Shown: positions 1-39,093, numbered from the stretch's first letter. The stretch is DNA of 64,000 bases from a virus (IMGVR_UViG_3300028908_000007:1-64000); one strand, 5' to 3'. Translations and numbers: made by a program. Notes: generated by a model not told the origin, from the letters alone.

Positions 1-1302
1 CCTCTTCCATACCCACACAATTGGACTACAAATCCAGTTAGGATTACCATTACTGCAAAGAATGAATCATTATTGTATTATGGAGTAACTGAGTTCATTC
101 TGGGAGAGTATCAGAAACCAATAAGTAATACTACAGATACAGTTAGTTCTTTATATACAGTACACACTGTAGTAAATAAAACAATAAAGAAACTAGATAT
201 AGATACCCTATCATTAGAACCTGTACAACTTCTAAACAATACAAGTGTTTTCAATAATGATTTTGAAGAAATATATGTAAAAGATGATAAGCTTATTGCC
301 GTTGGGTTCGTATCAGCCACCTATACTGATACCAATGGAAATACAGTAACAGCAACCAATGATAATATAGCTGTATTTGATATAGGTCTTAAATCATTAG
401 TAAAGACCAGTACGATTACAGGTACCGTAGTACAAGATGAAGTAACCAAAGAACTCTATACTATAGATCATTATACAGGCACTTTTTCTAGTCTGGATAT
501 TGATACCTTAACAGAATCAACGATTGTTGCTCTACCACAACCTACATATAGTGTATTGCTTCGTGATAAAGTAGCATATGTGTTATCAAAAGCACATACT
601 GTTGGCGGTGAGGAGCAACTATCTTTATATAAGATCGATATTCCAACAGGGACGTTTTCTGAGATATCGACAATAAAGAATTATAATCCAACTACATCTT
701 CTATGAATCCTTCTTTTAGTCCTGGAGATATAGCATACCAGAAAACAGATGATAAAGATTTATTAGTTATTAGAATTTTTAATACGACTCCGTTGAGTAG
801 CGATACTACCATACCCCAGGTAAATGGTATCAATCTTACAACAGATGTAGGTACTATAGATTCCGGTGTATTGAATTATGTGGTGGTAGATGTAGATGGT
901 GCGCCTTGGGTGGCTTTCCACTCTATGGCATGGGCAGTTCATCCAACCTTCTTACAAGAGCCAGGTATTGCTTCTATCCCAAGAAAAACATTAATGGTAG
1001 ACGATGAATATGTTTCTTATTTTTCATATAGGAAATCTCCAGACAATTACAGACTTTCCTACACACCAGTAACTTCCACTCTTAGAGGTGTAATTCAAAA
1101 TCCAGTATCAAAAGACCCAGTATATTGGACTAAGATTTCCGATATAGTACAGATATCGCCAGGCAAGTATTTGGTTATTGGTAAAGGACAACACAAACAC
1201 GGTGGGACACTTTCTACAACTAGTGCTGTAATGGCTATCTACACACCATCTGGTGAGATTATTTCGTATAAGATTGCATCAGGAGAGCTTGGTCGGGCGT
1301 GA
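1..1302 (+). CDS. Virion/tail-associated protein with probable beta-propeller, 5'-truncated by the window edge
   Basis: Frame is open from base 1 (PLPYPHNWTTNPVRITITAKNESLLYYG...). Thr/Val/Ser/Tyr-rich beta-strand repeats. Last codons overlap the predicted omegaRNA. Confidence 0.5.
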   Translation, partial: PLPYPHNWTTNPVRITITAKNESLLYYGVTEFILGEYQKPISNTTDTVSSLYTVHTVVNKTIKKLDIDTLSLEPVQLLNNTSVFNNDFEEIYVKDDKLIAVGFVSATYTDTNGNTVTATNDNIAVFDIGLKSLVKTSTITGTVVQDEVTKELYTIDHYTGTFSSLDIDTLTESTIVALPQPTYSVLLRDKVAYVLSKAHTVGGEEQLSLYKIDIPTGTFSEISTIKNYNPTTSSMNPSFSPGDIAYQKTDDKDLLVIRIFNTTPLSSDTTIPQVNGINLTTDVGTIDSGVLNYVVVDVDGAPWVAFHSMAWAVHPTFLQEPGIASIPRKTLMVDDEYVSYFSYRKSPDNYRLSYTPVTSTLRGVIQNPVSKDPVYWTKISDIVQISPGKYLVIGKGQHKHGGTLSTTSAVMAIYTPSGEIISYKIASGELGRA

Positions 1303-1465
1303 TCGTAAAGTAGACTAAGTCCTTTTAGTCCGCTCCATGTGATCACTATCAGGAAGTAGTCCTGTACGTACCGACCAGCGCTCCCACGATAGTGGGAAAA
1401 CAGTGAAGTAAGTTTGGTCAGCTAGTGAGACCGCCCAAGACCTATCTGTTCAAGATAGCGTATTG
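1288..1465 (+). ncRNA. Putative omegaRNA (HEARO-like scaffold) of the IscB system
   Basis: GC-enriched non-coding stretch directly upstream of iscB with nested stems: cttggtcgg/ccgcccaag, gactaag/tttagtc, tcacta/tagtga, cagga/tcctg, gacca/tggtc, tcccac/gtggga followed by aaacagtg, ctatc/gatag. Ends are approximate. Confidence 0.65.
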
Positions 1466-1493
1466 TAATGTGTTTTTATCTAGGAGGTTATTT

Positions 1494-3164
1494 TTGCCTA
1501 ACTATGTGCCAGTGTTATCTGACGATGATAGAATAATTGGCTATGGCCATCCATCTGTCATCCGAAAGATGTTTAGAGCAAAAGTAGCATTTGTATGCTC
1601 TCGTCACCCATTTATGGTGAAGATGAAGAAAGGCATCAAATGTAAACATGCTCTTAAGAAGTATGTAGAATATGGTATAGATCCTGGTGTACACCACACT
1701 GGAGTATCTGTAATATCTTACGATACGATACAAACTACTGAAGGTCGTATCTCTTTGCGAGATATATTAGCCATGTATGTATTGGAGCATAAGAAACTTA
1801 TTACTAGGAAATTAGAAGAAAGGGCCATGTATCGTCATCATCGACGACGTAGACAACAACGTAAAGGTACTAGATGGTCCAGACTAGGTAAAGAATTTCA
1901 CGTATTACCAGGAATAGATGAAGTTAGAGAAGACGGTACTAGGAAGTACCGTAAAGAGAAAGTAATCCTAGGATACAAAGAACGTAAACTACGTAACCTG
2001 GAATTACTAACAGAGTGGCGTAATTCTGGAAAGATTTCAGAAGAAGAGTATCGATCTAGAGCAAGACAGATCGATAAAGCTTTAAAAGAGCTAGATAGGA
2101 AATATTACAAGCCTAAGAGCTGGTTATCACCAGCTACTAGGAGTAGATTAGAAAACATAGGATATTTCATACATAAGATTTCTTATGGTTTAAATACTAA
2201 TAGACCTATGGTTATCTATTACGAAGATGTAAGATTTACACCTGAATTGGCAGAAGATATATTTAGAGATACCAATAGTATACTTAAACCCATACAAAAA
2301 GACTATATACGCTGGAGAGATAACTATCAGTGCCAGCTATGTGGCTATGATTTTATTAAGAATAATTTCAAAAGACAACCGCAAATAGACCATATCTATC
2401 CTAGGTCTAAAGGTGGTCCTAACGATAGGACTAATTTACAACTTTTATGCTCTAGCTGTAATCAGAAAAAAGATAATTATCTACCACATGAACTCTACTC
2501 TATATTCCCTAAGAAATACCATAAAGCTATAGACAAAATGCAAAATAAAACAAACCATACTAAGCAATATCAAACAAAATCCACTCAAACCAGGAAACTA
2601 TTTGCAAGATATCTGGAACTAGCCATTACAAAATCCAGACTAAGTCCTACTAGGCAAATAGATCTTAAATATCCTACCATTATGTTTAAGGATAAGATAA
2701 TTCATAATTCAGAATTAGTCTATGTCGATAGAGTACCTGGGTATTTTACATACTACTGTAGAAATTATAATAACTTACCAAAAGAACACTGTATAGATGC
2801 TGCCTGTGTATCTAGTAAACCAATACGAGTAAATATAAGATCATATCAGTATACTGAAATTAAAGTAAAGGGACATAGAGATAAATTATACATACGGCCA
2901 GATAAATATGGTTTTCCTAAGAAAACTAGACCTAAACCACGTACTAAGCGTATAAACGGATATCAATCTGGAGATCTAATAAAATATATTACCAAGAATA
3001 ATAATATCTGCAAGGCATATGTCTCTACATCAGCACAAGATGGTCGTATAGCGCTTAATAAAAATGGAAAACAAGTTTTTATGACTACCAAACGAATGCT
3101 ATCCATACTGCATAAAGCAGATGGATATCTCTGTAACCCTGTTAATTTTGGAGACCACTTATGA
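1494..3164 (+). CDS. iscB: IscB RNA-guided endonuclease (RRXRR/RuvC + HNH) with insertions
   Basis: PLMP-like N-terminus (VPVLS..IIGYGHP..IRKM..PF), RuvC-I GIDPG, Arg-rich bridge helix (LEERAMYRHHRRRR), WLSP, RuvC-II YEDVRF, HNH (CQLCG..IDHIYPRSKGG..NL..LCSSCN), RuvC-III EHCIDA, C-terminal GYQSGDLIK. Likely start is TTG 1494 after GGAGG. Confidence 0.93.
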   Translation: MPNYVPVLSDDDRIIGYGHPSVIRKMFRAKVAFVCSRHPFMVKMKKGIKCKHALKKYVEYGIDPGVHHTGVSVISYDTIQTTEGRISLRDILAMYVLEHKKLITRKLEERAMYRHHRRRRQQRKGTRWSRLGKEFHVLPGIDEVREDGTRKYRKEKVILGYKERKLRNLELLTEWRNSGKISEEEYRSRARQIDKALKELDRKYYKPKSWLSPATRSRLENIGYFIHKISYGLNTNRPMVIYYEDVRFTPELAEDIFRDTNSILKPIQKDYIRWRDNYQCQLCGYDFIKNNFKRQPQIDHIYPRSKGGPNDRTNLQLLCSSCNQKKDNYLPHELYSIFPKKYHKAIDKMQNKTNHTKQYQTKSTQTRKLFARYLELAITKSRLSPTRQIDLKYPTIMFKDKIIHNSELVYVDRVPGYFTYYCRNYNNLPKEHCIDAACVSSKPIRVNIRSYQYTEIKVKGHRDKLYIRPDKYGFPKKTRPKPRTKRINGYQSGDLIKYITKNNNICKAYVSTSAQDGRIALNKNGKQVFMTTKRMLSILHKADGYLCNPVNFGDHL

Positions 3165-3298
3165 TACGATCACACTGGCTAGTCACTAGTCCACGTTCGT
3201 CCTATAACGATGCTATGCATCACGTCCTCACTACGACCACCTCTGCTCCGCGATGCTACACATCCGGGGTCTGGAGGTCGTAATATATCCGTATATTA
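3165..3298. other. Structured GC-rich element downstream of iscB (IS end or second ncRNA)
   Basis: Hairpins ctag/ctag, cgtt/aacg, gatgc/gcatc, long tacgacc...ggtcgta, aatata/tatatt. Starts with TACGATCAC, the reverse complement of 1299-1307. Confidence 0.45.
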
Positions 3299-3303
3299 CT
3301 CCT

Positions 3304-3714
3304 ATGTCTGTCGTAATATTACCAACACTTAGTGATAAACATTGGGTAGTAGACCCCGTATCAAAAGCTGATATGTTATTTGCACATTTTATGGCAGGTA
3401 GTAATACACAAACCTATATGTATACATCGGAAGTATCTTCACTACCCTACCTATTACAGAAGTATGGTCATAATCCAAACGAATTTGCTACTAATGTAAA
3501 AACCAGATTACAAATCTACTATCAAAGGTACTATGACAATGTAGATATACAGGTCTATGCCAAAGAGGAAGTAGAAGGAACAAACAGATATAGCATACAT
3601 TTGGATATGATTGTTAGTGATGACGGTGGAAAAGAGATACAATTAGGAAGGATTTTGACAATTAATGATGGTAAAATGCAGAAGGTGGTAAAGTTAAATG
3701 CAACTGGATCCTGA
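3304..3714 (+). CDS. Conserved phiKZ-like virion/baseplate-type small protein
   Basis: ILPTLS..WV...KADMLFAHF..SLPYLLQKY pattern recalled from phiKZ-like phages. ATG 3304 preferred over 3253. Confidence 0.55.
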   Translation: MSVVILPTLSDKHWVVDPVSKADMLFAHFMAGSNTQTYMYTSEVSSLPYLLQKYGHNPNEFATNVKTRLQIYYQRYYDNVDIQVYAKEEVEGTNRYSIHLDMIVSDDGGKEIQLGRILTINDGKMQKVVKLNATGS

Positions 3715-4210
3715 CGAATTACTAGAGTTAGAAAAAGTAGAAGACCTAGCGTATAGCGGTTTGGTAGAAGACCAACCAAAAGGGAAGTTATCTGAGAAAA
3801 TATTTGTACAGTATTTTCTTCCTTATTTCTCAGGAAAGACCCCAATTACAGAGGAAGTTATCAATCAGTGGGTATCAGTAGCAGGAGGAATGACGAGAGA
3901 GGTAGATATTGTTGACGGAAAAGGAGAGTTTCTGTTTACGGTACCTGCATTATACGATACTGGTACAGTTACTGTTAGAGATGATAAAATATCGATATTT
4001 GATGTAGTAAGTACAGCAAACTTACATAATGAACGAGTTCCAGGTAGCGGAGATCCATATATTGCCAAGGCATCTGAAGAAACGGAGAAACTGGTAAACA
4101 AATCCAAGATTACACAGTTTTGGGAAGAGATGTCAAAACGCTATAATATTATAGAAAAGGAGAAAACTTCTGTAGAATCTGTAGAAGAGGACGATTTGTT
4201 TGACTACTAA
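3698..4210 (+). CDS. Conserved phiKZ-like hypothetical protein
   Basis: E.IF...FLPYF.G..W..VAGG...V...G..LF.VP pattern; acidic C-terminus; coupled to sbcD. Confidence 0.6.
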   Translation: MQLDPDELLELEKVEDLAYSGLVEDQPKGKLSEKIFVQYFLPYFSGKTPITEEVINQWVSVAGGMTREVDIVDGKGEFLFTVPALYDTGTVTVRDDKISIFDVVSTANLHNERVPGSGDPYIAKASEETEKLVNKSKITQFWEEMSKRYNIIEKEKTSVESVEEDDLFDY

Positions 4211-5390
4211 ATTTGACTATCTTGTCTATTCGGATATACACTTTGGTCATCGGAAGACCAGAATAGACAATACAATTCGGTCTATTGAGAACATATGGAA
4301 AGAACCTTGGTTTAGAGATCTAAAAGCAATATTTATTGCAGGCGACATATATGATAGAAAACTAGATCATGGTTCGTATGATGCTACTGAAGCCACACTA
4401 CACCTAATTAGATTAGGATATGTTTGTTTTAAGTATAATATAGAGCTTTACATATTAGAAGGAACACCATCGCATGATTGGAAACAAGCACAATCCGTTC
4501 CTGAGCTATATAGACATATGAAGATACCAATTACCTGCCACTATATTGATAAGGTAACAATAAAATACAGCAAAGCGTTAGAGAAGTATATTCTTTTTAT
4601 ACCTGATGAAATAGATACTCCGACCAATGTGTTTGATATGGTAAAGGAAGCAGTCCATAGTAAGGAACTGGATAAAGTTGATATTACGATTATGCATGGG
4701 GCTTTCAGATATCAACAATCCGGAGCTCCAGAAGAATATTGTCATTTAGAGATGGATTATCTAGCCATTACAAGATACTTGATACATCCTGGACATATCC
4801 ATCAACACACACATTATAAAAGGATTGTAGCACAAGGTAGCATTGATAGATATACACATGGAGATGAAGATCCAAAAGGATATGTTGTTGTAAGAAATAA
4901 TACCGATTGGATGTTTTATACCAATCCCACAGCTACCAAGTATGTTACAATCCCAATTCAGATAAAGACACTCGATGAAGCACGATCCGTGCTTTCAAAG
5001 CAAATTCAAACTCTTGACCTTCCAAAGAATAGTCACATTCGACTACAAATCCCAAAAAATAGTCCGATACCTTCTCTGATTTCAGAGATTAGAACACAGT
5101 TCCCATATTACCACATTACGTTTATTCGTGAAAAGGTGGTAGAGGAAGAGAAACCCAAAAGGTTATTGGAGGCTAAAGAATATGATTCTATCCAACTCAC
5201 TCCAGACAACATTATAGATATTGTTATGAAAAAACTGAACAGTTTAGACGTTTTTAGTACCGACCCAGTACCTACCATAGGGGTAGGTGATAAAAACGCC
5301 TCAGAGAGCCTCTCAGAGGCTCCTAGAGGGTATTCTGATGTACGTTCTGAGTATAAGAAACTACTATCCGAGATAATTTCAGATGTTTAA
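4200..5390 (+). CDS. sbcD: SbcD/Mre11-like metallophosphoesterase nuclease subunit
   Basis: SDIHFG, AGDIYD, EGTPSHD, MHG and GHIH phosphoesterase motifs. Confidence 0.9.
   Translation: MTTKFDYLVYSDIHFGHRKTRIDNTIRSIENIWKEPWFRDLKAIFIAGDIYDRKLDHGSYDATEATLHLIRLGYVCFKYNIELYILEGTPSHDWKQAQSVPELYRHMKIPITCHYIDKVTIKYSKALEKYILFIPDEIDTPTNVFDMVKEAVHSKELDKVDITIMHGAFRYQQSGAPEEYCHLEMDYLAITRYLIHPGHIHQHTHYKRIVAQGSIDRYTHGDEDPKGYVVVRNNTDWMFYTNPTATKYVTIPIQIKTLDEARSVLSKQIQTLDLPKNSHIRLQIPKNSPIPSLISEIRTQFPYYHITFIREKVVEEEKPKRLLEAKEYDSIQLTPDNIIDIVMKKLNSLDVFSTDPVPTIGVGDKNASESLSEAPRGYSDVRSEYKKLLSEIISDV
5243..5335. repeat. Phased quasi-palindromic element, copy A (inside sbcD)
   Basis: AGACGTTTTTA...TAAAAACGCCT dyad plus arm CTCAGAGAGCCTCTCAGAGGCTCCTAGAGG. 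Reverse complement aligns with 31696-31790. Confidence 0.75.
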
Positions 5391-6222
5391 TAAGATTACA
5401 AACCTTTTAGCTTCTAGAGAAGTAGGAGAATATCCAATATCGATACCGACTTCCATAGTCCTGGAAGCAATATTCAATAATGGAGATATGTTTTACCCGG
5501 AGGATATCAAACCTCCAAATAGACCAAACCCATCAAACTACGATTACCACTACTTCTCAATACCTACAATGATACGGAATCTAATATCATCCGTAGGTGT
5601 AAAAGAGATATCGGAGATACAAAGGAACCCAACTACTGTAGCTGAAACAGTACTGGAAGAAACAGATGTTATCAGGGAACTATATCAAGGAACATCTTGT
5701 AAACCAATTTTCTACACACACGGACATAGGAGTGTTCTAAAGGATACAAATCCGAATTTAGAATTTCGCAGGATCAGAGGACAGTTATTAGTAGTGGAAA
5801 GTACTATAAAACAGATTACATCCAAAGTAATCAATGAGGATTTAGAAGATCATCTCTTGGTTATGAATAGCTTTAAAAAGAATAACGCCAAAATACTAAT
5901 TACCACACACTACCCTGTAGAGCTTTTAGAAAGGGATAAATTTTCAGAAATGTCATTAATAGAATCTCATACTGGATCGTTTAAACCTTTTTGGTTATTA
6001 TACACGAAATATGCACATTATAAAGAAGACCCTAGATATAGTTTATTACCATGGAACAAACTACTTCTTTACTTATTGGGAGACAAGATACAGATTAAAC
6101 CAAAACCAAAAGAACTACGACTAAAGGTACTAACAATGGCAGAAAGGAAAAATTTTACACCAAGAACAAGTAATTCAAAAGTAATGTTGAATCTTCGACA
6201 GCTTGGTATTAAACTGTTCTGA
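5383..6222 (+). CDS. Conserved Chimalliviridae core protein (phiKZ gp67-like by synteny)
   Basis: ISIPTS, TMIRNL, TTHYPVELL, LIESHTG and LLGD motifs; lies between sbcD and the gp68-like gene. Confidence 0.55.
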   Translation: MFNKITNLLASREVGEYPISIPTSIVLEAIFNNGDMFYPEDIKPPNRPNPSNYDYHYFSIPTMIRNLISSVGVKEISEIQRNPTTVAETVLEETDVIRELYQGTSCKPIFYTHGHRSVLKDTNPNLEFRRIRGQLLVVESTIKQITSKVINEDLEDHLLVMNSFKKNNAKILITTHYPVELLERDKFSEMSLIESHTGSFKPFWLLYTKYAHYKEDPRYSLLPWNKLLLYLLGDKIQIKPKPKELRLKVLTMAERKNFTPRTSNSKVMLNLRQLGIKLF

Positions 6223-6275
6223 CATGTTGGTATATTTACCTTGTGTGTCCGATTTTTTATTCTTTGGAGCCTCAT

Positions 6276-7865
6276 GTGAAGTTATCGCTTAAACTTCTTC
6301 AAACACCAAGACATATAGAAATAGAAAACAATAATGAATCATTGACCATACCTATAGGTTTATTGAAACCAGGTATTATAAGTACCTGGAAAAAGGTAGA
6401 AGCTCAAGAACCAGAATTCTACTACTATATTAATAAGTATCTTGAAGAGAACAAGATCAATACAAACGCCATTATGGATATTTATAAGAAAGCAATAGAG
6501 CTTATAGACAACTCTTCTTCTTACAGGGAAGTAGAAGAACCACTACGTATGATTGTAAGTCAGCTTTACGATATATTCGTACCTGTGGATTTTAGGAATT
6601 GGTTCCTATCAAATGTAGAGATCAAGACACCTGTAGGAATCATGAAGGAAATGAATAAGACAAAGGAAGCAGAAGGTATGATGTCTAGGGAAAAGACATT
6701 CTTGGAGAGTGATTATAAGGAGTTATTTGTATTATCACAAGTACTACGTGTTTTCCTACCTATCTATGGGTACTATGATTACAAAAATGGAGATAGACTC
6801 ATCAGTAGCAAGAAGTCATACTTCTATTGGAAATGGTTGATGAAGAGTCGTTTCCTAGAACTCCCAGGATATCTTAAGCTAAAGACTTATGCAGAAGTCA
6901 TAGCCGCACCGAAATTAAAATACAGAGATGTAAGTAAGAAGATCTCCACGGAAGGATCTACATTATCAAAAGGAAAATCCATGATCATGGATGGTGTTTC
7001 CAGATCGGATAGGGTCATATGGGAAATCAGTAACCTTCTCTTATCATCCATTGTATTCAGAAAGCTACATAGTGGTGTTGGTGATAAGAATATGGTCGTA
7101 TCCATTTATACGGCCTTGAATCCAGCCGATCCAAATCGTGCTGGGTTATCTGACCAATACCGAACAAAGAGAGTTTCGGACTTGGATGGAGAGGAAGACA
7201 GACCTTCTGCTCTGGAGAGCTATAAGACTGGTACAGATCTATCCACAGGAGGGATAGAGGAAATGAACTTCTTAGCCGGAGACCCACATTACCTGCGAAA
7301 TACATTAAATACAGAGATACCTGATTCTCTATTGAATGCATTACTAGCCAACGCTATGGAATATATGCGTCTACACAGCGATAATAGCGTACAAGTACAG
7401 CTAAGGGATTGCCAAAGAAACCTGATAAGCTATATCATGTCTAAGATCATGGATCCGGAAGCTATACTATATGTAGACGTAAACAATATGGCAAACTTGA
7501 TTGCTGTATCTCAAGGACAATTGATACATCACGGATTTGGCGATATAGCAATGCTGCTTACCACCAAGATGTATATTGTCTCTACACCAAGTACAGAACC
7601 ACCTATAGTTCCAGATCAATACAAAGAACCACTACTATATAAATATCCTCCTATATCTACCGAAATGATTAATATATCTAATACAGAGTATGAGTTCAGT
7701 ATACTTGGACATATTTCTTATTTATCCAAAGATTGTACATCTTATAGATGGGGTGGAGTCGTCGGTGGTGATAGTGGAATATATCATCACAAAGACCATG
7801 AAGCCTATAAAAGACTCAAAACAACAATAATTGAAAGAATCGCAAATCTCTATTTGTCTCTTTAA
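6276..7865 (+). CDS. Non-virion RNAP promoter-specificity subunit (phiKZ gp68-like)
   Basis: ~530 aa helical protein at the gp68 syntenic position; TF...DYKEL and SALESYK motifs. GTG start after GGAG. Confidence 0.6.
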   Translation: MKLSLKLLQTPRHIEIENNNESLTIPIGLLKPGIISTWKKVEAQEPEFYYYINKYLEENKINTNAIMDIYKKAIELIDNSSSYREVEEPLRMIVSQLYDIFVPVDFRNWFLSNVEIKTPVGIMKEMNKTKEAEGMMSREKTFLESDYKELFVLSQVLRVFLPIYGYYDYKNGDRLISSKKSYFYWKWLMKSRFLELPGYLKLKTYAEVIAAPKLKYRDVSKKISTEGSTLSKGKSMIMDGVSRSDRVIWEISNLLLSSIVFRKLHSGVGDKNMVVSIYTALNPADPNRAGLSDQYRTKRVSDLDGEEDRPSALESYKTGTDLSTGGIEEMNFLAGDPHYLRNTLNTEIPDSLLNALLANAMEYMRLHSDNSVQVQLRDCQRNLISYIMSKIMDPEAILYVDVNNMANLIAVSQGQLIHHGFGDIAMLLTTKMYIVSTPSTEPPIVPDQYKEPLLYKYPPISTEMINISNTEYEFSILGHISYLSKDCTSYRWGGVVGGDSGIYHHKDHEAYKRLKTTIIERIANLYLSL

Positions 7866-7880
7866 AACCGGAGAAACATT

Positions 7881-9320
7881 ATGAACGACGCTGTAATCGA
7901 ATCCGTTTCCCTAATGGAGATTCCACACAGCAGGAAGTACTATCTACGACCCTATGATGTTTCGGTATCTGTAGAGAACCTGAACGATTTGGAAGCATCT
8001 ATCGTGGATAGTAGAAATCGAGGAAACATGGCAATAAATCCAGCAGACATACCGGCTGGATTGATAATGCCTACAGCCACACCTACTAAAGACGTACCCA
8101 TACCTGGTACTTGGGAGGCTACAAGATATACCTTCATCATAAAGGTAATGGAGGATAATGCTGCCATACAATCAAGAATAGAACATTATATTACAGGATA
8201 TACAGAAGAAACCGAGCTGTCATATGCTGGTAGTGTAGATCCGAATATGATTATGTATATCAATAATGTAATGCAGATTGTTGGTAGAAAACGCTTGTAT
8301 GATATAAATACGATTCTACATACACATGCGGAGACAAATATAGGTGCATCCGACGAGAATATTACCTATCTGAGAATATACGATACCATACCTAGCGAGC
8401 TGATAGAACAAGGTGATTATACAGGAGGTCTAACAATACAAGCAAACAGAATGTCTGTATTGGATAGGGGCGGGAGAGCGATTAGTGCAGAAGAAACAGT
8501 AGGAACAAACTTTATATCCAGCGCTGTTAATATATGGTTACAACAAGTCTTGGCAACTATGACAGCGGAGCATATCGAAACAAATACATACGATCCGGAT
8601 AGTATAATCGATGTAGGTCAATATAGAAAAGCACCAACCGATATGCTTAGCTCAATACAAGTATTAAAGCCGTCCGGTGCCTATAATTATATCAGTAATA
8701 GTATAACATATGCTCAACTAGTGTCCAAGGATCCATCAGTACCTCAGAAGACGATTATTTCTGACTATCTAGAACAACCTGAATCCAATTTTATAATGCC
8801 GGAAAACTGTGAATCATGGAAGGCGTCCACACAAGAAGCTGTAATAGCTACCATTATATCAGAACAGATGCCGTCGATTATGCTGTCGTCTGGTCTTATT
8901 ACAGCTGGAGTCATTTTTACCAATATGACCACAGATGGAGAGCCATTCCATTTGAATATCACATTCCCAGTTACGTTTGGATCTTTGGATGCATCTATAT
9001 TCTCTACTATCTTTAGAAATAGACTAATAAAAGAAGTCATTCCTTCAATTACACAGAACAATACGATTCCAGTATCGTTTACTGCAACACTTAGTTTGGT
9101 AGCTCCTTCTACCGCAATAATTCAAATCAACGGACCAGTTGGTCCAGAAAGCACTCCGTTTAATCTCCCAACATTCAACACAGGTATGCATTCTTCAGTA
9201 CTTCTTCCCTCAATGTCCTACCACCACCGGTTACGACAAGAGCTCGGCACGCTGCGTGAGGTAGTACAAGATACAGCAACATCCGCTTTCCAGCAACAGC
9301 CCGAGGTTTTCTATGGCTAA
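7881..9320 (+). CDS. picA: Putative phage-nucleus protein import factor PicA/Imp1 (phiKZ gp69-like)
   Basis: Follows the gp68-like gene; YLRPY, IPGTW...RYTF, YITGYT and YINNV motifs; ~480 aa. Assignment is mostly by synteny. Confidence 0.6.
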   Translation: MNDAVIESVSLMEIPHSRKYYLRPYDVSVSVENLNDLEASIVDSRNRGNMAINPADIPAGLIMPTATPTKDVPIPGTWEATRYTFIIKVMEDNAAIQSRIEHYITGYTEETELSYAGSVDPNMIMYINNVMQIVGRKRLYDINTILHTHAETNIGASDENITYLRIYDTIPSELIEQGDYTGGLTIQANRMSVLDRGGRAISAEETVGTNFISSAVNIWLQQVLATMTAEHIETNTYDPDSIIDVGQYRKAPTDMLSSIQVLKPSGAYNYISNSITYAQLVSKDPSVPQKTIISDYLEQPESNFIMPENCESWKASTQEAVIATIISEQMPSIMLSSGLITAGVIFTNMTTDGEPFHLNITFPVTFGSLDASIFSTIFRNRLIKEVIPSITQNNTIPVSFTATLSLVAPSTAIIQINGPVGPESTPFNLPTFNTGMHSSVLLPSMSYHHRLRQELGTLREVVQDTATSAFQQQPEVFYG

Positions 9321-11221: not shown

Positions 11222-11251
11222 TAACTCGTCTCTTTGATATATTTAATTGTT
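11221..11251 (+). promoter_or_regulatory. Putative phage early promoter (AACTCG...TTTGATATATTTAA)
   Basis: 28/31 identical to 26390-26420; lies upstream of an nvRNAP gene. Confidence 0.6.
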
Positions 11252-11275
11252 GTCCAACCATCTGGGAGAACTTTC

Positions 11276-13417
11276 ATGCTTTCAAAGTCCGATATGCGAA
11301 TTGAGCATAGAGACTTATCCATTCATTCAACCAATCCATTCGTGGAACATAATTCATCTCCACGATCTTCTATGTATGCTTCTCATATCAACCAAGCTGT
11401 AGTACTGGAAGAAACAGATGTTCCATACATACTAACTGGTGGTGAAAAACGGGTCGGAGAACTCACAAAAGATATTGTCATACCAGAAGATGCTATCGTC
11501 GAAGCATGTATATATCGATATAATGGTGTTGGTACACCAGCATCAAAACGAGTAGAAACTCTGATACTCTACTATGGATTAGAGTCTACTACACTAGACT
11601 ATATCGTTATTCCTACTTTTGATAAGAACCATCAATACTTTGGATATTATTTACAACAGACAGATATATTCACACCTGGTATGAAGCTATACAAAGGACA
11701 GGTTTTAGCATCTACCCCATCAAAGACAAATAAGGAAGGATGGTATGGTTTTGGACGAAATTTAAATACAGCCTTTATGGATATGCCTGGTGTCGCAGAG
11801 GATGGATTTATTGTTTGTGAAGATGTATTAGAAAAGCTAGCTTTCCACGTATTTGAAAGAAGAACACTAGCTTTGAATATAAAAGGAGATGATTTAGAAG
11901 GAATTCCATCTATAAACATTCCGCTGAATTTATATGGGGATAGTGAGAAATATAAAGTATTTCCAGATATAGGAGAACCAGTAAGACCTGATGGTGTTTT
12001 GATGTCTACTCGTAGGATACGATTCAGTAGACTGGCAGCAGAAGCCAGTAGAGAACGACTCATGGTTTCAGAAGCCAAAACCGATTATGAAATCTTTACC
12101 AGAAATAATAATGGAGTAGTTGTAGATGTAGAAGTATTACGACAACCATATCTCAACAACAGTAGTCTTTTACCTTATGTACAATTGGATCATTATGCAA
12201 ATCTTTTCAAGAGCTTTTATAAGAAGATACTTGACGCAGAAACCTTGGTACGTCAGAAGTACTACAAATCAAAAGGAGAACTTAGACTTTCCAATAAATG
12301 TATAAGTCTATTTGAAAAGGCAAGACTTTATGCGGGTTCTTTATATAATAGCTCATCCAGAGGTATCAAGGAAAGAGCAATACGATTTGTAGAGAGGAAA
12401 GACTATAGCGGAGATTATCGCTTGTCTCTTACAGTAAACCACAGACTAATACCAGGTATTGGTTCGAAGCTATCCGACCGTGCTGGCGGTAAAGGTGTAA
12501 TTGTAGAGATACGGAAACCAGAACAAATGCCAGTCGATCAATATGGAGTTAGAGCCGATATCATCGTAGATAAAAATAGTATCATATCCAGAATGAATCC
12601 AGGCCGGTATTATGAGCAAACCTATAATTATACAGCAATACATACTACAAAGAAAGTAAGAGAAATATTGAACTTGGGACAAACAGAGAATAAGGAAGAC
12701 GCTAGAGAAAAATTAAGACAGGTAGATGATGCAAAAAAGAAAGAAGCAATACAATATTTGAAAGGTCTTTATAAGATAGTATCTCCAAAGCAATATAGAA
12801 AATTACAAGATAGTAGAAAAAGTATCAAAGATGAAGTATTAGCCACTATAGTAGATAACGGTGTTTTTATATGGAAAGATATCTCCGATCCCAGAGAACC
12901 TCTAGATATTGTAAGAAAACTGATAGAATCCGATTACTATCCAAAACCAACAACTGTATCATGGATGGGTTTCGATGGAAATATAAAGGAATCCAGAAAA
13001 CCAATACTTATTGCACCTACCTATATTATGTTATTGGAAAAGATAGGCGATAGTGGGATGGCATCAGCAAGTCCATTGATAAATCATGTTGGTGTCTTTA
13101 CAAAAGCTCCAAAACAATTTAAACACAGATATCCAATACGTTTAAATCCAGTAAGAATTATAGGCGAGTCAGAAACCAGAGTAATTACTTCATATACTGG
13201 ACCATTGGGAATATTAGAGCTTTTGGATCAGGGATCCAGCTTGCAGACACATAGAGAGATTTATAAGGTCTTTCTAAACCATGATAATCCTACCAACATA
13301 GACAGGATATTGGATAGAGACAAGTTCATTTACGGAAGATCTACACCAATACAGATTGTAGAACATGTTTATTTCTGCCAAGGCATTCATGATTTCTTTG
13401 TAAAGTGTGAGGAATAA
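11276..13417 (+). CDS. Non-virion RNAP beta subunit, C-terminal part (phiKZ gp71-73-like), uninterrupted
   Basis: SSPRSSM, GRNL..AF...EDG, GSKLSDRAGGKGVI, SRMNPGR and R.IGESE beta motifs. ATG 11276 after GGGAG. Confidence 0.9.
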   Translation: MLSKSDMRIEHRDLSIHSTNPFVEHNSSPRSSMYASHINQAVVLEETDVPYILTGGEKRVGELTKDIVIPEDAIVEACIYRYNGVGTPASKRVETLILYYGLESTTLDYIVIPTFDKNHQYFGYYLQQTDIFTPGMKLYKGQVLASTPSKTNKEGWYGFGRNLNTAFMDMPGVAEDGFIVCEDVLEKLAFHVFERRTLALNIKGDDLEGIPSINIPLNLYGDSEKYKVFPDIGEPVRPDGVLMSTRRIRFSRLAAEASRERLMVSEAKTDYEIFTRNNNGVVVDVEVLRQPYLNNSSLLPYVQLDHYANLFKSFYKKILDAETLVRQKYYKSKGELRLSNKCISLFEKARLYAGSLYNSSSRGIKERAIRFVERKDYSGDYRLSLTVNHRLIPGIGSKLSDRAGGKGVIVEIRKPEQMPVDQYGVRADIIVDKNSIISRMNPGRYYEQTYNYTAIHTTKKVREILNLGQTENKEDAREKLRQVDDAKKKEAIQYLKGLYKIVSPKQYRKLQDSRKSIKDEVLATIVDNGVFIWKDISDPREPLDIVRKLIESDYYPKPTTVSWMGFDGNIKESRKPILIAPTYIMLLEKIGDSGMASASPLINHVGVFTKAPKQFKHRYPIRLNPVRIIGESETRVITSYTGPLGILELLDQGSSLQTHREIYKVFLNHDNPTNIDRILDRDKFIYGRSTPIQIVEHVYFCQGIHDFFVKCEE

Positions 13418-19880: not shown

Positions 19881-21410
19881 TTAAAAATCGTCGGAATCCG
19901 AAACTCCGGTTTTTAATTCCTGCACCGTCCTGGCGCCCTGTTTTATTTCTTCAGTATCTGGAGGTATGGGCATAGATTCTGGGAATTCGAATACCAAATA
20001 CTTATCTTTTGTAGGAATGATTCCAGTGCCTCTATGTTTTCCTCGACACATATGTAAATATGTCTTCCCGACTCTTTTATCTTCTTCTAGTGCGATATAT
20101 AATTCTAAGTCGATTTCTGTATCTAACTGCCTTGACTTTGCGTAATAACCGCCGCCGTTGATTTCTTCGAGAAGTTTTCTTCCACGTATTCCTTCTCTCC
20201 ACAGTTGTTTTGCCTCTGTTGAGAGTTGATGAGGTGTAATGAAACATATCTTTTTACTACTAAAGAAGTTTCTTACACGTTTGAACATATCCTGCACGTC
20301 AGTGCCAGCAGCTCCACTTCGATCACATCCATAGGTAGGTAGCATTGAAAGATAATCTACCATACACATATGGACTTCATATCCTTCTGCTTCATAGTTT
20401 AATATAACATCCAGAAGATTTCTATAAGTCCATTCGGAAGGATTTACACGCAACATCTTTATATGATATCCATTTATCTCTAATTGTTCTTTGACATAGG
20501 ATGTCATTTCCTTATAATCGTATTGGTATGGATCTACGTTTTCTCGGGTTTCTGCATATTTGAGGTAGGTAAACAACATCGAGAAGTTATGATGAAGTTC
20601 GTCTTCGAGAGATATTCTTAATAAGAGGGGCTTGCGATCTTCATTTATCATGGATGGTTTATTGCACATAGCGATTTGTGCAAATAGACTTAAACCCATT
20701 CCTGTCTTATAGTTATGTTGTAATGCTGCGAGAGTTACAAATTCTCCTCTACGGAATCCACCTTGAAGAGTCTTATTTAGTACTTCCCATCCAGTTTTCA
20801 GTATGGCAGTACCATCGTGTTCTTCTCGCGCTCTTTTGTAGATCTCTTCCAATGTGTTTGGATCGTCAAGATTTACTTTGTCAATAATGGCTGGATCTTC
20901 TTCACCAGAGCTTATCTCTCCTTCGATTTCTCCTATCAGAGTACTAATGGTAGTCTTTAGTGGTTTTCCACCTTCTGCTAACTCTCCATAAGCTCTAGAT
21001 ACGACATTGATCAGTCTTTGTCTTCTTATTTTTTCATTGAGTTCTCTTTTTATCGTTATTATTCTTTTTGTTACGGCTTCTGGAGTCATAACTGAACTAT
21101 CTTGTATAGCTGATCGCAATGTGCTATACAATGCGTCTTTATGACCCATCGTAATAAATTCTATATCGGCTAATATATCCTCTCTCGAATACTCTATATC
21201 TGGAGGATCATTACACATATCATATACTGTTTTAATCAATAATCCAGTACCATCCATATTATGCACGCCTGGTCCTACCAGACGCTGGATCATTTTGTCA
21301 TTGTCGAGTAATTCCTTTACCAGTTCCCTGCTATCAGACTGTCTTGGTTTTATAATGGTCTCTAGATATAACAGGATATAGCATTTTGATAAAATTCTTC
21401 GTTCTTCCAT
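19881..21410 (-). CDS. dnaB: DnaB-like replicative helicase (phiKZ gp118-like)
   Basis: GGFRRGE, ALQHNYKTG (variant Walker A), ISLEDE, VDYL, TPHQLS and RGKHRG motifs. Confidence 0.88.
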   Translation of the reverse strand: MEERRILSKCYILLYLETIIKPRQSDSRELVKELLDNDKMIQRLVGPGVHNMDGTGLLIKTVYDMCNDPPDIEYSREDILADIEFITMGHKDALYSTLRSAIQDSSVMTPEAVTKRIITIKRELNEKIRRQRLINVVSRAYGELAEGGKPLKTTISTLIGEIEGEISSGEEDPAIIDKVNLDDPNTLEEIYKRAREEHDGTAILKTGWEVLNKTLQGGFRRGEFVTLAALQHNYKTGMGLSLFAQIAMCNKPSMINEDRKPLLLRISLEDELHHNFSMLFTYLKYAETRENVDPYQYDYKEMTSYVKEQLEINGYHIKMLRVNPSEWTYRNLLDVILNYEAEGYEVHMCMVDYLSMLPTYGCDRSGAAGTDVQDMFKRVRNFFSSKKICFITPHQLSTEAKQLWREGIRGRKLLEEINGGGYYAKSRQLDTEIDLELYIALEEDKRVGKTYLHMCRGKHRGTGIIPTKDKYLVFEFPESMPIPPDTEEIKQGARTVQELKTGVSDSDDF

Positions 21411-31850: not shown

Positions 31851-34220
31851 TTAAAACTCAGGTTCTTCCTCAGCGCCGCCAGTATCACCACCAGCAGCAG
31901 GTTCTTCCTCACCTTCTTCGCCTTCTTCTAAGCGATCCAGCTTTTTCTCCAGCTTCTTTTTGACCGGATTGATATTCTTAAGGTAATCGTATATTGAATT
32001 CATCAACTTAGTACTGTGCTCAGAAGTAATTTCTGACAGAGGTATCACCGGCTTGCCTTCTCCGTCTGTATTGATAATATCGAATAGCTCTGGCAAGTAG
32101 TTGTTGTCTGCCATCCATTTCCTTAAGAAGTACGCCTTATACACTTCTATAATGACAGGTAGCTTATCTCCAATATCTCCAACAACTTGTGAATCCAACA
32201 GCTCTTCTTTCAGTAGAGCTTCCACAGCTTCATCAAGAGCGCTCTTATATTCATTATACTGTTCTGTAAGGTTTTGCAGAGTCGTAGTTTCTGGACTTGG
32301 TAATTTTATAATAATATTGTCTATAAATGCCTCAGTGATTGTATTTATTGCAACAGGATTATCCAGATTTTTCCTATGTTCTGGTGGTAATTGTTTTTTG
32401 ATAGAAGGGAGGTTATCCTTTACAATTTCCCGTAAGTTGTCTTTGATAATTTCGTCATAGCGTACCAACTTTCTAACATGGTCTGTAATGAATCGATTAA
32501 ATACCTTCTGATACATACTGATTCGTTTACTGAGCAAGATATTGTTTGCTACTACAGTGGTGGCGAAGTCTCCAGAGAATCCATTGTCTACTACTTCAGC
32601 AGGAAGACCCAATGCCATAAAGGATCTTTTCCTTAGATTCTCATCGAGTTCATCATCTGGTAGTTCGTGATTTATTTTAGTACTTTCATAATTTATGTTC
32701 GTAGTAGGAATACGAGGATGTCCACTAAATTCGAACTCATATCCTAATTGACTTGCCCAGTTGGCTAGGTCTGAAATATTAGTAGAACCAACAGGCAGAT
32801 AAGTCCTTTGTGATCCTAATATGTAGGATACGATAGTCTCTATTGTTTTATCTGGATCTGGATCTGTTTCATCCAACTCTACTTGTACTTTTGTAGTAGG
32901 TATAGTATTCTTTACCATTGCCATTAATTTAGCAAAAAGTGTCATTGCTCGTATAGACGAAATTACTAAAAGGTCATCCGTAAGACTTTTACCTACACCG
33001 TTTGGATAGTATTTGTATGCATAATACACCATAACTTCTTGTGGAATATACAATATTTTTGTTTTCATCTTAGACATATGTCTAAAGAGTAATAGTTTGT
33101 ATACTTCGTCCTTATTACTGATTTCTATTTCTTCTTTCTTATATACTCCATTCTTTAACTTTTCTACTAACTCTTTTTCCACCAAATCCTTGTAGAAGCT
33201 CAATACTTCTGGCATATTCTTGGTGCCTTTCTTATTTATATTTAATGCCTTCTTGGCTTTCTTTATGATTCGAGAGGTTTCTACTTCACCACCTAACTGT
33301 GTGTTGAAAACTTCTGAAAACTTCTTATCGCTAAACTCTTCTGTATGTTTTCTTGTAATTGGATTACCAGTATTATCCAGTAATACGAAGATGCCGAGTT
33401 TCTTATCTAATCGACCAGGAGATTGTACTGGAATAACAGCCTCTGATGGTAAGTTTAATACCATAGGACGCCCAATACTTTCTCGTTCTCCAGTAGTCGG
33501 CATAGTTATCATTGTCTTGTCTTTGTTTGCAATATCTGCATTATAGAGCCAAGACATTCCAGCCCTTCTCGTTCTTGTACCAGTAATAATAGATTCTACC
33601 GTTACTTCTCTTTCTATTTCGTAGAACTTCGGTAACTTTAATTGGTCGAGATTATCCGATATTTCCAAATACTCGTCTACAGTTTCAGTGTTAGACAATA
33701 TGCCTTTATTGGAGCTAATATGATATTTTCGTTCCAATACACTTTCTGTAGTAACTTCCTTATTGGCTAGTAAACGATCTAGGACGTTTTCTGGAATAAT
33801 ACATACGACATGACTTCCCTTTTCAAATAAGACATTTCTGATGATCTCTGGTAGTTGACTTCCAATATCATAAATTGTGTTTATATTCTCTTTAACATGA
33901 CTTAAAAGCTTATTTACCAAGTCATATGGTAGGTTAATTTTATCAACTGAGTATTGGAGTTCCTCAGACATCATGTCCTTAGGAGACATGATGGAAGATA
34001 CTAATATCTGTATTGCCAGCTCCATATCTGGGAACAGACTGGTAATATCTTCCAGGACTTCCTGCCGTTTTATAGTTCCTTTAGAGATATTGCTTAACGC
34101 GTCTAACGGTGGCGTTGTAATCTTTTTATTTTTTTCCTTTACACCTTTTGCTAGTAATGAGCCAAGATATGGTGTTTTGCTGGCAGTATCTTCTATCTGA
34201 ATGTTAGTGGTTTTTGTCAT
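31851..34220 (-). CDS. Portal protein (phiKZ gp129-like)
   Basis: LFPDMELAIQILVSSIMSPKD, LPSEAVIPV, G.GKSL and FATTVVANNILL motifs; ~790 aa; acidic tail. Confidence 0.75.
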   Translation of the reverse strand: MTKTTNIQIEDTASKTPYLGSLLAKGVKEKNKKITTPPLDALSNISKGTIKRQEVLEDITSLFPDMELAIQILVSSIMSPKDMMSEELQYSVDKINLPYDLVNKLLSHVKENINTIYDIGSQLPEIIRNVLFEKGSHVVCIIPENVLDRLLANKEVTTESVLERKYHISSNKGILSNTETVDEYLEISDNLDQLKLPKFYEIEREVTVESIITGTRTRRAGMSWLYNADIANKDKTMITMPTTGERESIGRPMVLNLPSEAVIPVQSPGRLDKKLGIFVLLDNTGNPITRKHTEEFSDKKFSEVFNTQLGGEVETSRIIKKAKKALNINKKGTKNMPEVLSFYKDLVEKELVEKLKNGVYKKEEIEISNKDEVYKLLLFRHMSKMKTKILYIPQEVMVYYAYKYYPNGVGKSLTDDLLVISSIRAMTLFAKLMAMVKNTIPTTKVQVELDETDPDPDKTIETIVSYILGSQRTYLPVGSTNISDLANWASQLGYEFEFSGHPRIPTTNINYESTKINHELPDDELDENLRKRSFMALGLPAEVVDNGFSGDFATTVVANNILLSKRISMYQKVFNRFITDHVRKLVRYDEIIKDNLREIVKDNLPSIKKQLPPEHRKNLDNPVAINTITEAFIDNIIIKLPSPETTTLQNLTEQYNEYKSALDEAVEALLKEELLDSQVVGDIGDKLPVIIEVYKAYFLRKWMADNNYLPELFDIINTDGEGKPVIPLSEITSEHSTKLMNSIYDYLKNINPVKKKLEKKLDRLEEGEEGEEEPAAGGDTGGAEEEPEF

Positions 34221-34226
34221 ATAAAA

Positions 34227-36221
34227 ATGGGGCGGTTGTTGATCGTGAAAAAACTCGAATTGATTCTGCAAGATTACATACTATCTACCTTTAAATTGGC
34301 AGGAAGTATGCAGATAAAAAATATAGATGCTGTAGAGAGCATCAATGACTTTTTACGCATCACACACGGTGATAGTAGTGTCGGCAGTGACCCGCTTACA
34401 TGGAAATACTATTTAAATGTTTCCGGGGAATACCACAGCACAGATAAACCAATGTCTGTAAATTCTGTGGAATTACAAGGATTGGTCATTCCATTTACTA
34501 AAGCTTCTTTAGATACCTATAAATTAACGAAAGATGTATACTCTTATGGAACCGATAAGTATTATCAGTTGGTAGAAAAATATCCAGAACAAGAACTATT
34601 AATAAAAGGAATTCTATACCCAACAGATATCAATAGAGCCATTTCTGCTCAAGATGGTGAAATACTCGCCTATGATGAGCGATATGTGCAGAGTAATGAA
34701 TGGGGTCTTATTGAGGAAATAAACCAGTGGATTTATAACTGGCTGAGTCGTTGGAATGAGCGAGGATTCACTTTAACAGACGAGCTTTATTCTGCGGCCA
34801 GACATGGTATTATGTCGATGTATCTTCCCCTGAAAATAATGGATATACGTCAAAGAAAAATAGGGACGATACATGCTCATGATTTTCATAAGAAGTTATA
34901 TATCAGTAGCAGGATGTCTGAGGATATTGTAACTTCTGTACTGAACGAATATAGCATACAATGGATCTATAGAAATCTTCGATATATCAATGCTCAAAGA
35001 GGGAAGGCTTTGACTAGCGATATCATAATAGATAATTTATTGGAACTGAACAAGATACCAATCTCATGGACTACCAGGACACAGGTAAAACAACCGTATC
35101 CTAGTCTTCTTCCAGATATACTTTATAAAGATAAAGCATTGACGACTCGTTGGAATACAGCAAAAGAGCTATACAGGACAGAAGCAGAAGTTATCGATTT
35201 AGAAAAAGACGAAGCATACTATAATGCAAGCTACCTGGATTATCATACGAAATCTTTATCGAAATATACGAGATTTTCCTCTATGCCTACTAAGGTTCTG
35301 TTATCATACATAATAGATAAAGGAGACTATGTATCACATACCTATAAACATATCTTAATAGAGCATTGGGGATATATGGTAGCTTCCAATGATTATAAAG
35401 GCAATGTGGTATGGAAGAATACCTACAATGATTTAGAACACACTCTTACTATGTCAGAAGCTTTTGCTCTATACATGTATTTCACTTTGAAGAAACTCAA
35501 TAGTTCTTTGGAGCCTGTCGGGTTCCCGAGATGGTACTACACCCATATAGCCAATAATACAGATACTGCTACAGTATTAACCAACATGCCAAAGGATGTA
35601 AAGGTAGACACAGATATACAAGACTATGGCGACCAACACACTGTAATTGATACAGTAATTGGTGGTGAATTGTTTAAGACACAGATAAAAAAGATATATG
35701 AATCAAATATCTATGGTTGGAAAAAGGTATTATCAAAAGGAAATCTATATTCAAATGGCATTATGCGTAACATGTGGTTCAAGTACTATAAGTATGGAAG
35801 CATACCTTTAACAGATTATCCGGATTACAACACAATGTTCACAGCACTAAACATTACAATGCCTGATAACATGTCCATGAGTTATATAGATACATCGTTA
35901 AACGAGTTACAAAAGTTATGTATTGGAGACGTAGATGAAGACACTTTGAGGATATTGCAAGAATCTGTATTAAGGATATTTGATCTGTCTACTTCCTATA
36001 GGACACAAACAATAAGTAAGATAACCAATACGTTCTCATATTACGGAAGACATTGTGGTGTGAAATACACACCAGGAAAGATTAGCCAGTACTATTCTAA
36101 GGTTCATCCAGTGATAAGTGAACCACCACATGAAGACATCCACGTAACAGGAGATTGGTTTCTAGTGTCTTTTGATCAATTAACACCAGCCCAACAAGCA
36201 CAAATCGGAGATATTTACTAG
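34227..36221 (+). CDS. Virion structural/baseplate protein (phiKZ-like)
   Basis: TWKYYLNVSGEYH, YPEQELLIKGILYP and YRNLRYI motifs. Start codon uncertain. Confidence 0.65.
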   Translation: MGRLLIVKKLELILQDYILSTFKLAGSMQIKNIDAVESINDFLRITHGDSSVGSDPLTWKYYLNVSGEYHSTDKPMSVNSVELQGLVIPFTKASLDTYKLTKDVYSYGTDKYYQLVEKYPEQELLIKGILYPTDINRAISAQDGEILAYDERYVQSNEWGLIEEINQWIYNWLSRWNERGFTLTDELYSAARHGIMSMYLPLKIMDIRQRKIGTIHAHDFHKKLYISSRMSEDIVTSVLNEYSIQWIYRNLRYINAQRGKALTSDIIIDNLLELNKIPISWTTRTQVKQPYPSLLPDILYKDKALTTRWNTAKELYRTEAEVIDLEKDEAYYNASYLDYHTKSLSKYTRFSSMPTKVLLSYIIDKGDYVSHTYKHILIEHWGYMVASNDYKGNVVWKNTYNDLEHTLTMSEAFALYMYFTLKKLNSSLEPVGFPRWYYTHIANNTDTATVLTNMPKDVKVDTDIQDYGDQHTVIDTVIGGELFKTQIKKIYESNIYGWKKVLSKGNLYSNGIMRNMWFKYYKYGSIPLTDYPDYNTMFTALNITMPDNMSMSYIDTSLNELQKLCIGDVDEDTLRILQESVLRIFDLSTSYRTQTISKITNTFSYYGRHCGVKYTPGKISQYYSKVHPVISEPPHEDIHVTGDWFLVSFDQLTPAQQAQIGDIY

Positions 36222-38684: not shown

Positions 38685-39093
38685 CGATATACGGATATTT
38701 TATAAGACATATAAAGAAGAATTCTCTAAATGGCTAGAAGATGAGGATATATCAAAGTCTTCACTAGGTAGAATACACGCTGCCTTTAAAGAACTCGATA
38801 GTAAGGATCAAGAAACAATTATATACATACTTCTATTAGATGTAATACGCTGTTATAGAATACCTGATAAAGCTGCCAGAGAAGCTGAAATCGAATTCAG
38901 CTATCTCCGGAAGCTTAGTCAGGTAAAGATTAACTTTATAAGAGTATTTGGCTACCTGATGATTGGTATCCTAGTATTTGGATTGGTAATTGCTATAGCA
39001 TCGATACTGAGTTTGTATAACTGGAACATAGTAGATCTTATAAAAGATCTGGCCACACATATTGGTATTTTTGGCATGAGTTCTAAATACTAG
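38653..39093 (+). CDS. Hypothetical membrane protein
   Basis: C-terminal TM segment. Confidence 0.5.
   Translation: MMRIHLPSHSDDIRIFYKTYKEEFSKWLEDEDISKSSLGRIHAAFKELDSKDQETIIYILLLDVIRCYRIPDKAAREAEIEFSYLRKLSQVKINFIRVFGYLMIGILVFGLVIAIASILSLYNWNIVDLIKDLATHIGIFGMSSKY

Follow-up and report, generated by a model that had tools for sequence, protein, structure and literature searches.

An IscB encoded in the jumbo-phage DNA studied here carries ~70 more residues than ordinary IscBs between its bridge helix and the WLSP (LTP-type) start of RuvC-II, at the very site of the OgeuIscB REC linker and the Cas9 REC lobe, as an initial annotation of this DNA had claimed (PMC9640706, PMC13180657). Judged from its sequence, the insert is real, functional-looking and unique apart from one homologue. 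It probably represents an enlargement of the REC linker for binding omega RNA and/or the guide:target duplex on its TAM-distal side, a role proposed here by analogy with OgeuIscB. The window (the whole stretch analysed, 64,000 nucleotides) covers the opening 64 kb of an IMG/VR virus record of 75,388 bp, with an estimated completeness of 29%. One sequencing run with this DNA is a hydrothermal vent metagenome, and RNA runs are not listed for it. Genes around iscB match jumbo-phage PHROGs, and further downstream lies:

11234-13417: multisubunit RNA polymerase beta-subunit gene (phrog_3295, 2e-151)

This beta subunit marks the record as a fragment of a phiKZ-like (chimallivirus-type) jumbo phage. 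Relatives of the product of the gene downstream of iscB (phrog_3294) were found only in phiKZ-like Erwinia, Ralstonia and Burkholderia jumbo phages, at 28-30% identity. The gene order is otherwise on the plus strand and is interrupted by minus-strand ORFs at 19881-21410, 31851-34271 and 39090-41720.

IscB is a small RNA-guided DNA cutter and the ancestor of Cas9. The gene, its bridge helix and an additional insertion discussed below are positioned as follows:

1494-3164, plus strand: iscB gene, an intact ORF of 556 aa with a TTG start after AGGAGG
1800-1862, plus strand: Arg-rich bridge helix (aa 103-123), a helix in the AlphaFold2 model
2622-2717, plus strand: second clade-specific insertion (aa ~377-408) before RuvC-III, a gap in canonical IscBs (alignment A1, columns 501-540; also by hhalign)

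The product of 1494-3164 is an IscB by its fold, its RuvC and HNH domains and its bridge helix. A gap of 6 nt separates AGGAGG from the TTG, and the homologous locus (L002) has an ATG at the equivalent position. Pfam profiles for HNH (1.2e-13) and HNH_5 (1.1e-11) match the protein, as does RRXRR (3.4e-16), whose profile positions 1-140 are spread over aa 5-229, pointing to a large insertion. The RuvC catalytic residues D63 (GIDPG, motif I), E244 (YYEDV, motif II) and H432/D435 (HCIDAA, motif III) are invariant or near-invariant in alignments A1-A3, and the HNH domain inserted in RuvC conserves C280, C283, H300, C319, C322 and N323, with H300 among the catalytic residues. Given the conservation of these RuvC residues, of H300 and of both CxxC pairs, the nuclease looks intact by its motifs. 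Bridge-helix residues R110, R114, R117 and R118 are nearly invariant across 117 IscBs.

An AlphaFold2 model of the whole protein, based on a 117-sequence alignment, reached a pLDDT of 86 and a pTM of 0.82, with pLDDT >89 over aa 1-60. Foldseek and VIA-align ranked IsrB, OgeuIscB, TbaIscB and engineered OrufIscB as its best structural matches (E down to 4e-17, Z ~20), and IscB/IsrB chains align with the model from residue 2-3 to residue 548-552 (Z ~20). This full-length alignment takes in the PLMP domain and the C-terminal TAM-interacting beta barrel by which an IscB is recognized. Type II-D and other Cas9s rank after IscB/IsrB, at Z 12-14. The PLMP domain is absent from Cas9; unlike Cas9, the protein retains it, together with the size of an IscB. 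Its motif is diverged (IIGYGHP), and ~30 extra residues (aa ~377-408) precede RuvC-III compared with canonical IscBs, both as initially annotated. The protein has no close relatives in IMG/VR, GTDB genomes or GenBank phages. A PDB sequence search also returned TAL-effector repeat proteins for window 3006-3128 (aa 505-545, TI barrel), which we rejected as a repeat-summing artefact, the summed E of 4e-18 arising from ~20 weak repeat matches with E >10 each. No regularly spaced CRISPR repeats were found in window 1-9000, and the adjoining genes are phage genes, with no cas gene among them.

The REC site itself comprises three segments:

1863-1973, plus strand: first part of the insert (aa 124-160), a basic stretch with a low-confidence fold, possibly a small beta hairpin around REDGT
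1974-2108, plus strand: second part of the insert (aa 161-205), an antiparallel two-helix hairpin with loop GKIS (AlphaFold2 helices)
2121-2138, plus strand: WLSPAT, the LTP-type motif (named in PMC13180657) that opens RuvC-II and closes the REC site, with W210, L211 and P213 invariant or near-invariant

Window positions 1857-2120, where the insertion had been annotated, correspond to aa 122-209. The original count of ~88 aa between RHHRRRRQ and WLSP was accurate, since 89 residues separate R120 of RHHRRRR (aa 114-120) from W210. In a MAFFT alignment of 117 related full-length representatives, obtained by searching 1.84 billion proteins, the same interval measures 10-19 residues in 90 of the 117 (modal value 17), at least 30 residues in 18 and at least 80 in six; relatives mostly show 17-20. 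An artefact of alignment or reading frame can be discounted. A homologue with 57% identity overall (P0003, whose gene is on the 4.8-kb metagenome contig L002) shares the insert, which is itself 83% identical. The initial annotation had divided the region into two inserts around an equivalent of the RYRxxRFxN (FNNR) motif. The stretches that it named, GYKERKLRN (aa 160-168) and LELLTEWRNSGKISEEEYRSRARQI (aa 169-193), are both present as written, but the proposed anatomy was not supported. The motif equivalent is GYKERKLRN in that reading, TRWSRL (aa 126-131) according to MAFFT, and according to hhalign YRKEK (aa 152-156) for YRxxR and YRSR (aa 186-189) for FxNR. An alignment revealed no recognizable RYRxxRFxN motif at this site in the six other clade members. 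As three methods disagree on the motif and the clade relatives are devoid of it, aa ~124-205 are treated here as one enlarged linker.

The two halves of the insert differ in how they were modelled. Helices spanning aa 161-178 and 183-204 were predicted with pLDDT 75-92 in the whole-protein model and ~90 in an isolated model (aa 95-240 alone, four-sequence alignment); the next helix, aa 213-229, opens RuvC-II. Residues 124-160 remain at pLDDT 45-57 in both models, and a two-residue beta bridge in the REDGT region is hinted at in the isolated model only. Each half bears a net charge of ~+4, as counted from sequence. The helical hairpin anticipated for the second half is thus seen in two independent models, but its identification as SHOCT-like was not upheld. 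A Pfam scan of the excised 51-aa segment yielded GvpG at E 0.02, DUF1707 at E 0.11 and SHOCT at E 0.12, the latter with 12.6 bits against a cut-off of 27 and 17 residues matched, and none of the three matched the whole protein. SHOCT is by definition a short C-terminal domain. Membership therefore fails, both on a score below the gathering threshold and on the internal position of the segment (aa 169-205 of 556). What is shared with SHOCT (PF09851) and DUF1707 (PF08044) is the pattern L..L....G.IS.EE[FY] and a helix-turn-helix shape, a resemblance rather than a membership for an internal segment with so short a match.

Comparison of the isolated insert domain with 48,161 PDB chains retrieved only generic helical hairpins, the best being the ESCRT-I core at Z 7.7, a range that the search tool itself describes as non-specific for helical models. 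Further structural neighbours are a serine-integrase coiled coil, IcmR-IcmQ and GvpG, and an ESM Atlas search added GvpG and recombinase coiled-coil hairpins. On the models, the hairpin resembles protein-protein coiled-coil hairpins (ESCRT-I core, serine-integrase) as much as anything else; such generic matches give no specific fold assignment, yet they are no demonstration of a new fold either. No Cas9 REC occurs among the 50 best structural matches of the isolated domain. In these matches, the likeness to the Cas9 REC lobe that had been suggested is apparent at the topological site and not in the structure. The REC of type II-D and other early Cas9s likewise follows the bridge helix and is helical, but it forms a triple-helical bundle with sub-insertions, whereas two helices are predicted here.

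Constraint on the insert was assessed against its single homologue. A search with the insert alone across 5.8 billion protein clusters, covering near and shorter length classes, recovered only the window's own protein and P0003. The two proteins are 83% identical within the insert, rising to 89% in its first part (aa 124-160), compared with 56% over the rest of the protein; insert and rest have the same fraction of conserved residues encoded by identical codons (~0.7). For this one sequence pair, Nei-Gojobori estimates give the insert a dN/dS of 0.116 at dS 0.82 (0.067 for the first part, 0.145 for the hairpin), compared with 0.35 for the rest of the protein and 0.12 for the HNH domain. A dN/dS of 0.12 against 0.35 elsewhere indicates that the insert is functional. 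Few parts of the protein are more strongly constrained in this pair than the insert, and that holds for its poorly predicted half as well. Divergence between the two iscB copies is mosaic: the N-terminal 100 residues (from window 1494-1830) show dS ~2.0 and 40% amino-acid identity, the C-terminal 115 residues (2800-3164) dS 0.63, and the flanks are ~90% identical. This pattern suggests recombination between element variants.

A FastTree phylogeny built with the insert columns left out placed the window's protein and seven others in one group (SH-like support 96), with the window's protein and P0003 as sisters (support 100). Bridge helix-to-RuvC-II spacings in the eight members are 34, 35, 36, 41, 43, 53, 89 and 89 aa. 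The distinct lineage originally proposed was recovered as a small monophyletic clade with an enlarged spacing in every member. Outside it, spacings of at least 39 aa are scattered over at least eight other places in the tree, some of them representing zinc-finger inserts with CxxC..CxxC, and this occurrence on several separate branches identifies the site as a recurrent insertion hot spot. Kannan et al. 2025 selected IscBs with >20 aa at the REC site for screening, and the published variety includes the beta-hairpin REC linkers of OgeuIscB and OrufIscB, the zinc finger of CzcbIscB, and TbaIscB (PMC13180657). The annotation would have lost its point had the insert been common in ordinary IscBs; inserts at this site do recur and have been published, but this particular sequence is in two proteins only.

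The insert studied here is a new example in the documented class of IscB REC-site inserts, not a new kind. It shares with the Kannan inserts a site between the bridge helix and an LTP-type motif (here WLSPAT), it exceeds their >20-aa criterion, and the core of the protein (PLMP, RuvC, HNH and TI domains) is likewise intact. It differs in that its confidently predicted part is a two-helix hairpin rather than a beta hairpin, zinc finger or three-helix bundle, in having one detectable sequence relative and no confident location for the FNNR motif, and in being carried by a jumbo phage from a hydrothermal-vent metagenome.

Directly flanking iscB are two conserved blocks, both GC-richer than their surroundings:

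1288-1447, plus strand: 5' block, candidate omega-RNA scaffold, ~90% identical to L002, with its left conservation boundary at ~1288
3100-3303, plus strand: structured 3' block, consisting of the last 65 nt of iscB and ~140 nt beyond, and reaching right up to the start codon (ATG) of the next gene

Each block is predicted to fold well (z ~-2.3 compared with shuffles), and most sequence changes between the two loci leave base pairs intact. In the 5' block the consensus fold comprises 47 pairs, with one two-sided change and four one-sided changes to wobble between the window and L002. For the 3' block, ~90% identical to L002, 50 pairs were predicted, three of them with two-sided changes, and its sequence features suit an RNA or a single-stranded-DNA transposon end. 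Its non-coding part (3165-3303) contains a long hairpin at ~3237-3285 with several G-U-compatible changes compared with L002. A 9-bp inverted repeat, GTGATCGTA (1299-1307) and TACGATCAC (3165-3173), spans the gene; in the consensus fold of the 5' block a local alternative partner, UGUGAUCAC (~1338-1346), is available, and L002 would retain only seven of the nine long-range pairs, including two as G-U. Rfam searches of window 1-6000 and of loci L002-L004 returned no family, HEARO included, at E up to 1, and HEARO had no match at E up to 10. A RAGATH-12 match to the 5' block alone scored 19 bits against a gathering score of 75 and was dismissed as chance.

The two copies have different neighbours: in L002 the unit is preceded by an unrelated ORF of 121 aa and followed by a dUTPase, and in the window it is followed by the phrog_3294 gene. 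As their ends are ~90% identical in these different surroundings, the unit ~1288-3303 is read as a mobile element, measuring 2016 bp in the window (1288-3303) and occupying 961-2943 in L002. Deleting 961-2943 from L002 restores TTC CTA TGA CC, with an ATGA stop/start overlap of the upstream ORF and the dUTPase. Deleting 1288-3303 from the window would instead join the upstream ORF in frame to the downstream one, so the exact left boundary is uncertain by 1-2 nt. The upstream, virion-type ORF of the window takes its last four codons (LGRA) and its stop from inside the element (1288-1302), and the upstream ORF of L002 overlaps the 5' block by 30 nt, in another reading frame. Directly after both copies stands ATG(T/A)C, the start codon of the next gene, which may be part of the TAM. 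No TnpA (PF01797) matched in the 75-kb record, itself 29% complete, and most IscB elements are without TnpA. Exact-pattern scans of IMG/VR for both element ends found nothing, and no empty site was found in related phages. The nearest of these, the Erwinia, Ralstonia and Burkholderia jumbo phages, have a downstream protein of only ~28-30% identity and no match to the upstream protein.

These features resemble GstIscB-type non-autonomous ISC/IS200-IS605 elements (Meers et al. 2023, 10.1101/2023.03.14.532601), which also have no TnpA in cis. As in other ISC/IS200-IS605 IscB elements, one end carries a conserved structured region upstream of iscB and the orientation follows that of the upstream gene, here in two gene contexts. 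The GstIscB TAM, TTCAT, reads ATGAA in iscB orientation, and both copies described here are followed by ATG. Differences are the lack of a HEARO match, the extra structured 3' block and the jumbo-phage carrier. By this comparison, the unit is consistent with a non-autonomous IscB element of the ISC/IS605 type, in which the upstream flank would supply the guide. Such a phage-borne element could home into co-infecting relatives.

How the insert might act is best considered alongside OgeuIscB (PDB 7XHT, 7UTN, 8CSZ; Kato et al. 2022, PMC9640706), with which the model aligns at Z 19-20 and which likewise links its bridge helix to RuvC-II through this segment. The OgeuIscB REC linker (~40 aa) binds the central stem and nexus hairpin of the omega RNA and forms a channel for the heteroduplex, and deleting it abolishes editing (PMC9640706). 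That linker contains a beta hairpin, unlike the ~89 aa found here, half of which are predicted helical. We propose that the REC linker joining bridge helix to RuvC-II would have been enlarged in a lineage-specific manner, by ~70 residues. Its basic stretch (~37 aa), possibly a small beta hairpin, would probably become ordered only on nucleic acid, and the rigid two-helix hairpin (~45 aa) that follows would complete an added protein surface on which the omega-RNA scaffold and/or the heteroduplex, in its TAM-distal part, is held. The RNP would belong to a TnpA-less IscB/omega-RNA element in a jumbo phage. Position, charge and constraint, read in the light of the OgeuIscB linker, make a nucleic-acid-holding role the most likely one, and the conserved structured block directly upstream of iscB makes an RNA partner plausible.

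A more far-reaching interpretation, raised in the initial annotation, that the insert acts as a small REC lobe through which a longer guide:target duplex is read than the ~13-16 bp of ordinary IscBs, appears unlikely to us. The insert does occupy the site of the Cas9 REC lobe and is under purifying selection, and in OrufIscB the effective guide became longer when REC domains were grafted at this position (PMC13180657). Yet among the 50 best structural matches listed nothing resembled the REC of Cas9 or Cas9d, the ESCRT-I hairpin at Z 7.7 leading them, and a two-helix hairpin is much smaller than a triple-helical REC bundle. Guide length is unreadable from sequence. The non-coding region upstream of iscB, ~205 nt from 1288 to the start codon with ~160 conserved, is not clearly shorter than the 242-bp average of IscB omega-RNA regions, and so gives no sign of an exchange of RNA for protein on the way to Cas9.

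The hairpin could instead be a protein-protein module, SHOCT-like or coiled-coil-like, used for nuclease dimerisation or for docking a phage or host factor and not for nucleic acid. We regard this as very unlikely: the SHOCT and DUF1707 signals (E ~0.1) and the interaction hairpins that are its nearest structures (ESCRT-I core, serine-integrase coiled coil, IcmR-IcmQ) speak for it, but none of these matches reaches a threshold and any alpha-hairpin would typically give them, SHOCT domains are C-terminal where this segment is internal, and the site faces RNA and DNA in solved IscBs. No solved IscB or Cas9 is known to oligomerise via this site. That the insert is tolerated filler without a function of its own is extremely improbable. 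Many unrelated inserts are found in this loop, which tolerates even REC domains grafted from other proteins (PMC13180657), and part of the insert is predicted to be disordered, but its dN/dS of 0.07-0.15 at dS 0.8 is the lowest in the protein and level with that of the HNH domain. Binding of omega RNA and/or the TAM-distal duplex by an enlarged REC linker is thus the reading that we prefer.

As a scaffold for genome editing, IscB has the merit of being compact and the weakness of a short effective guide, and natural REC-site inserts are raw material that has already been used for improved variants, e.g., NovaIscB. To these the present protein adds a natural solution at the REC site, a strongly constrained two-helix hairpin with a basic stretch, from a high-temperature-associated phage community, and the clade spacings of 34-89 aa offer a graded series for asking what REC-site inserts do. 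A broader proposition, which we hold to be quite doubtful, is that a phage IscB clade of eight known members has, without connection to the Cas9 lineage, enlarged its REC linker (from 34 to 89 aa) while using a short, non-HEARO 5' RNA (~160 conserved nt) and a second, 3' structured RNA. The picture of IscB/Cas9 evolution stays unchanged unless the insert alters guide read-out or replaces part of the omega RNA. If the new surface took over scaffold- or duplex-reading from the omega RNA, the guide might be longer or differently checked, and the clade would represent a parallel natural experiment in the IscB-to-Cas9 transition.
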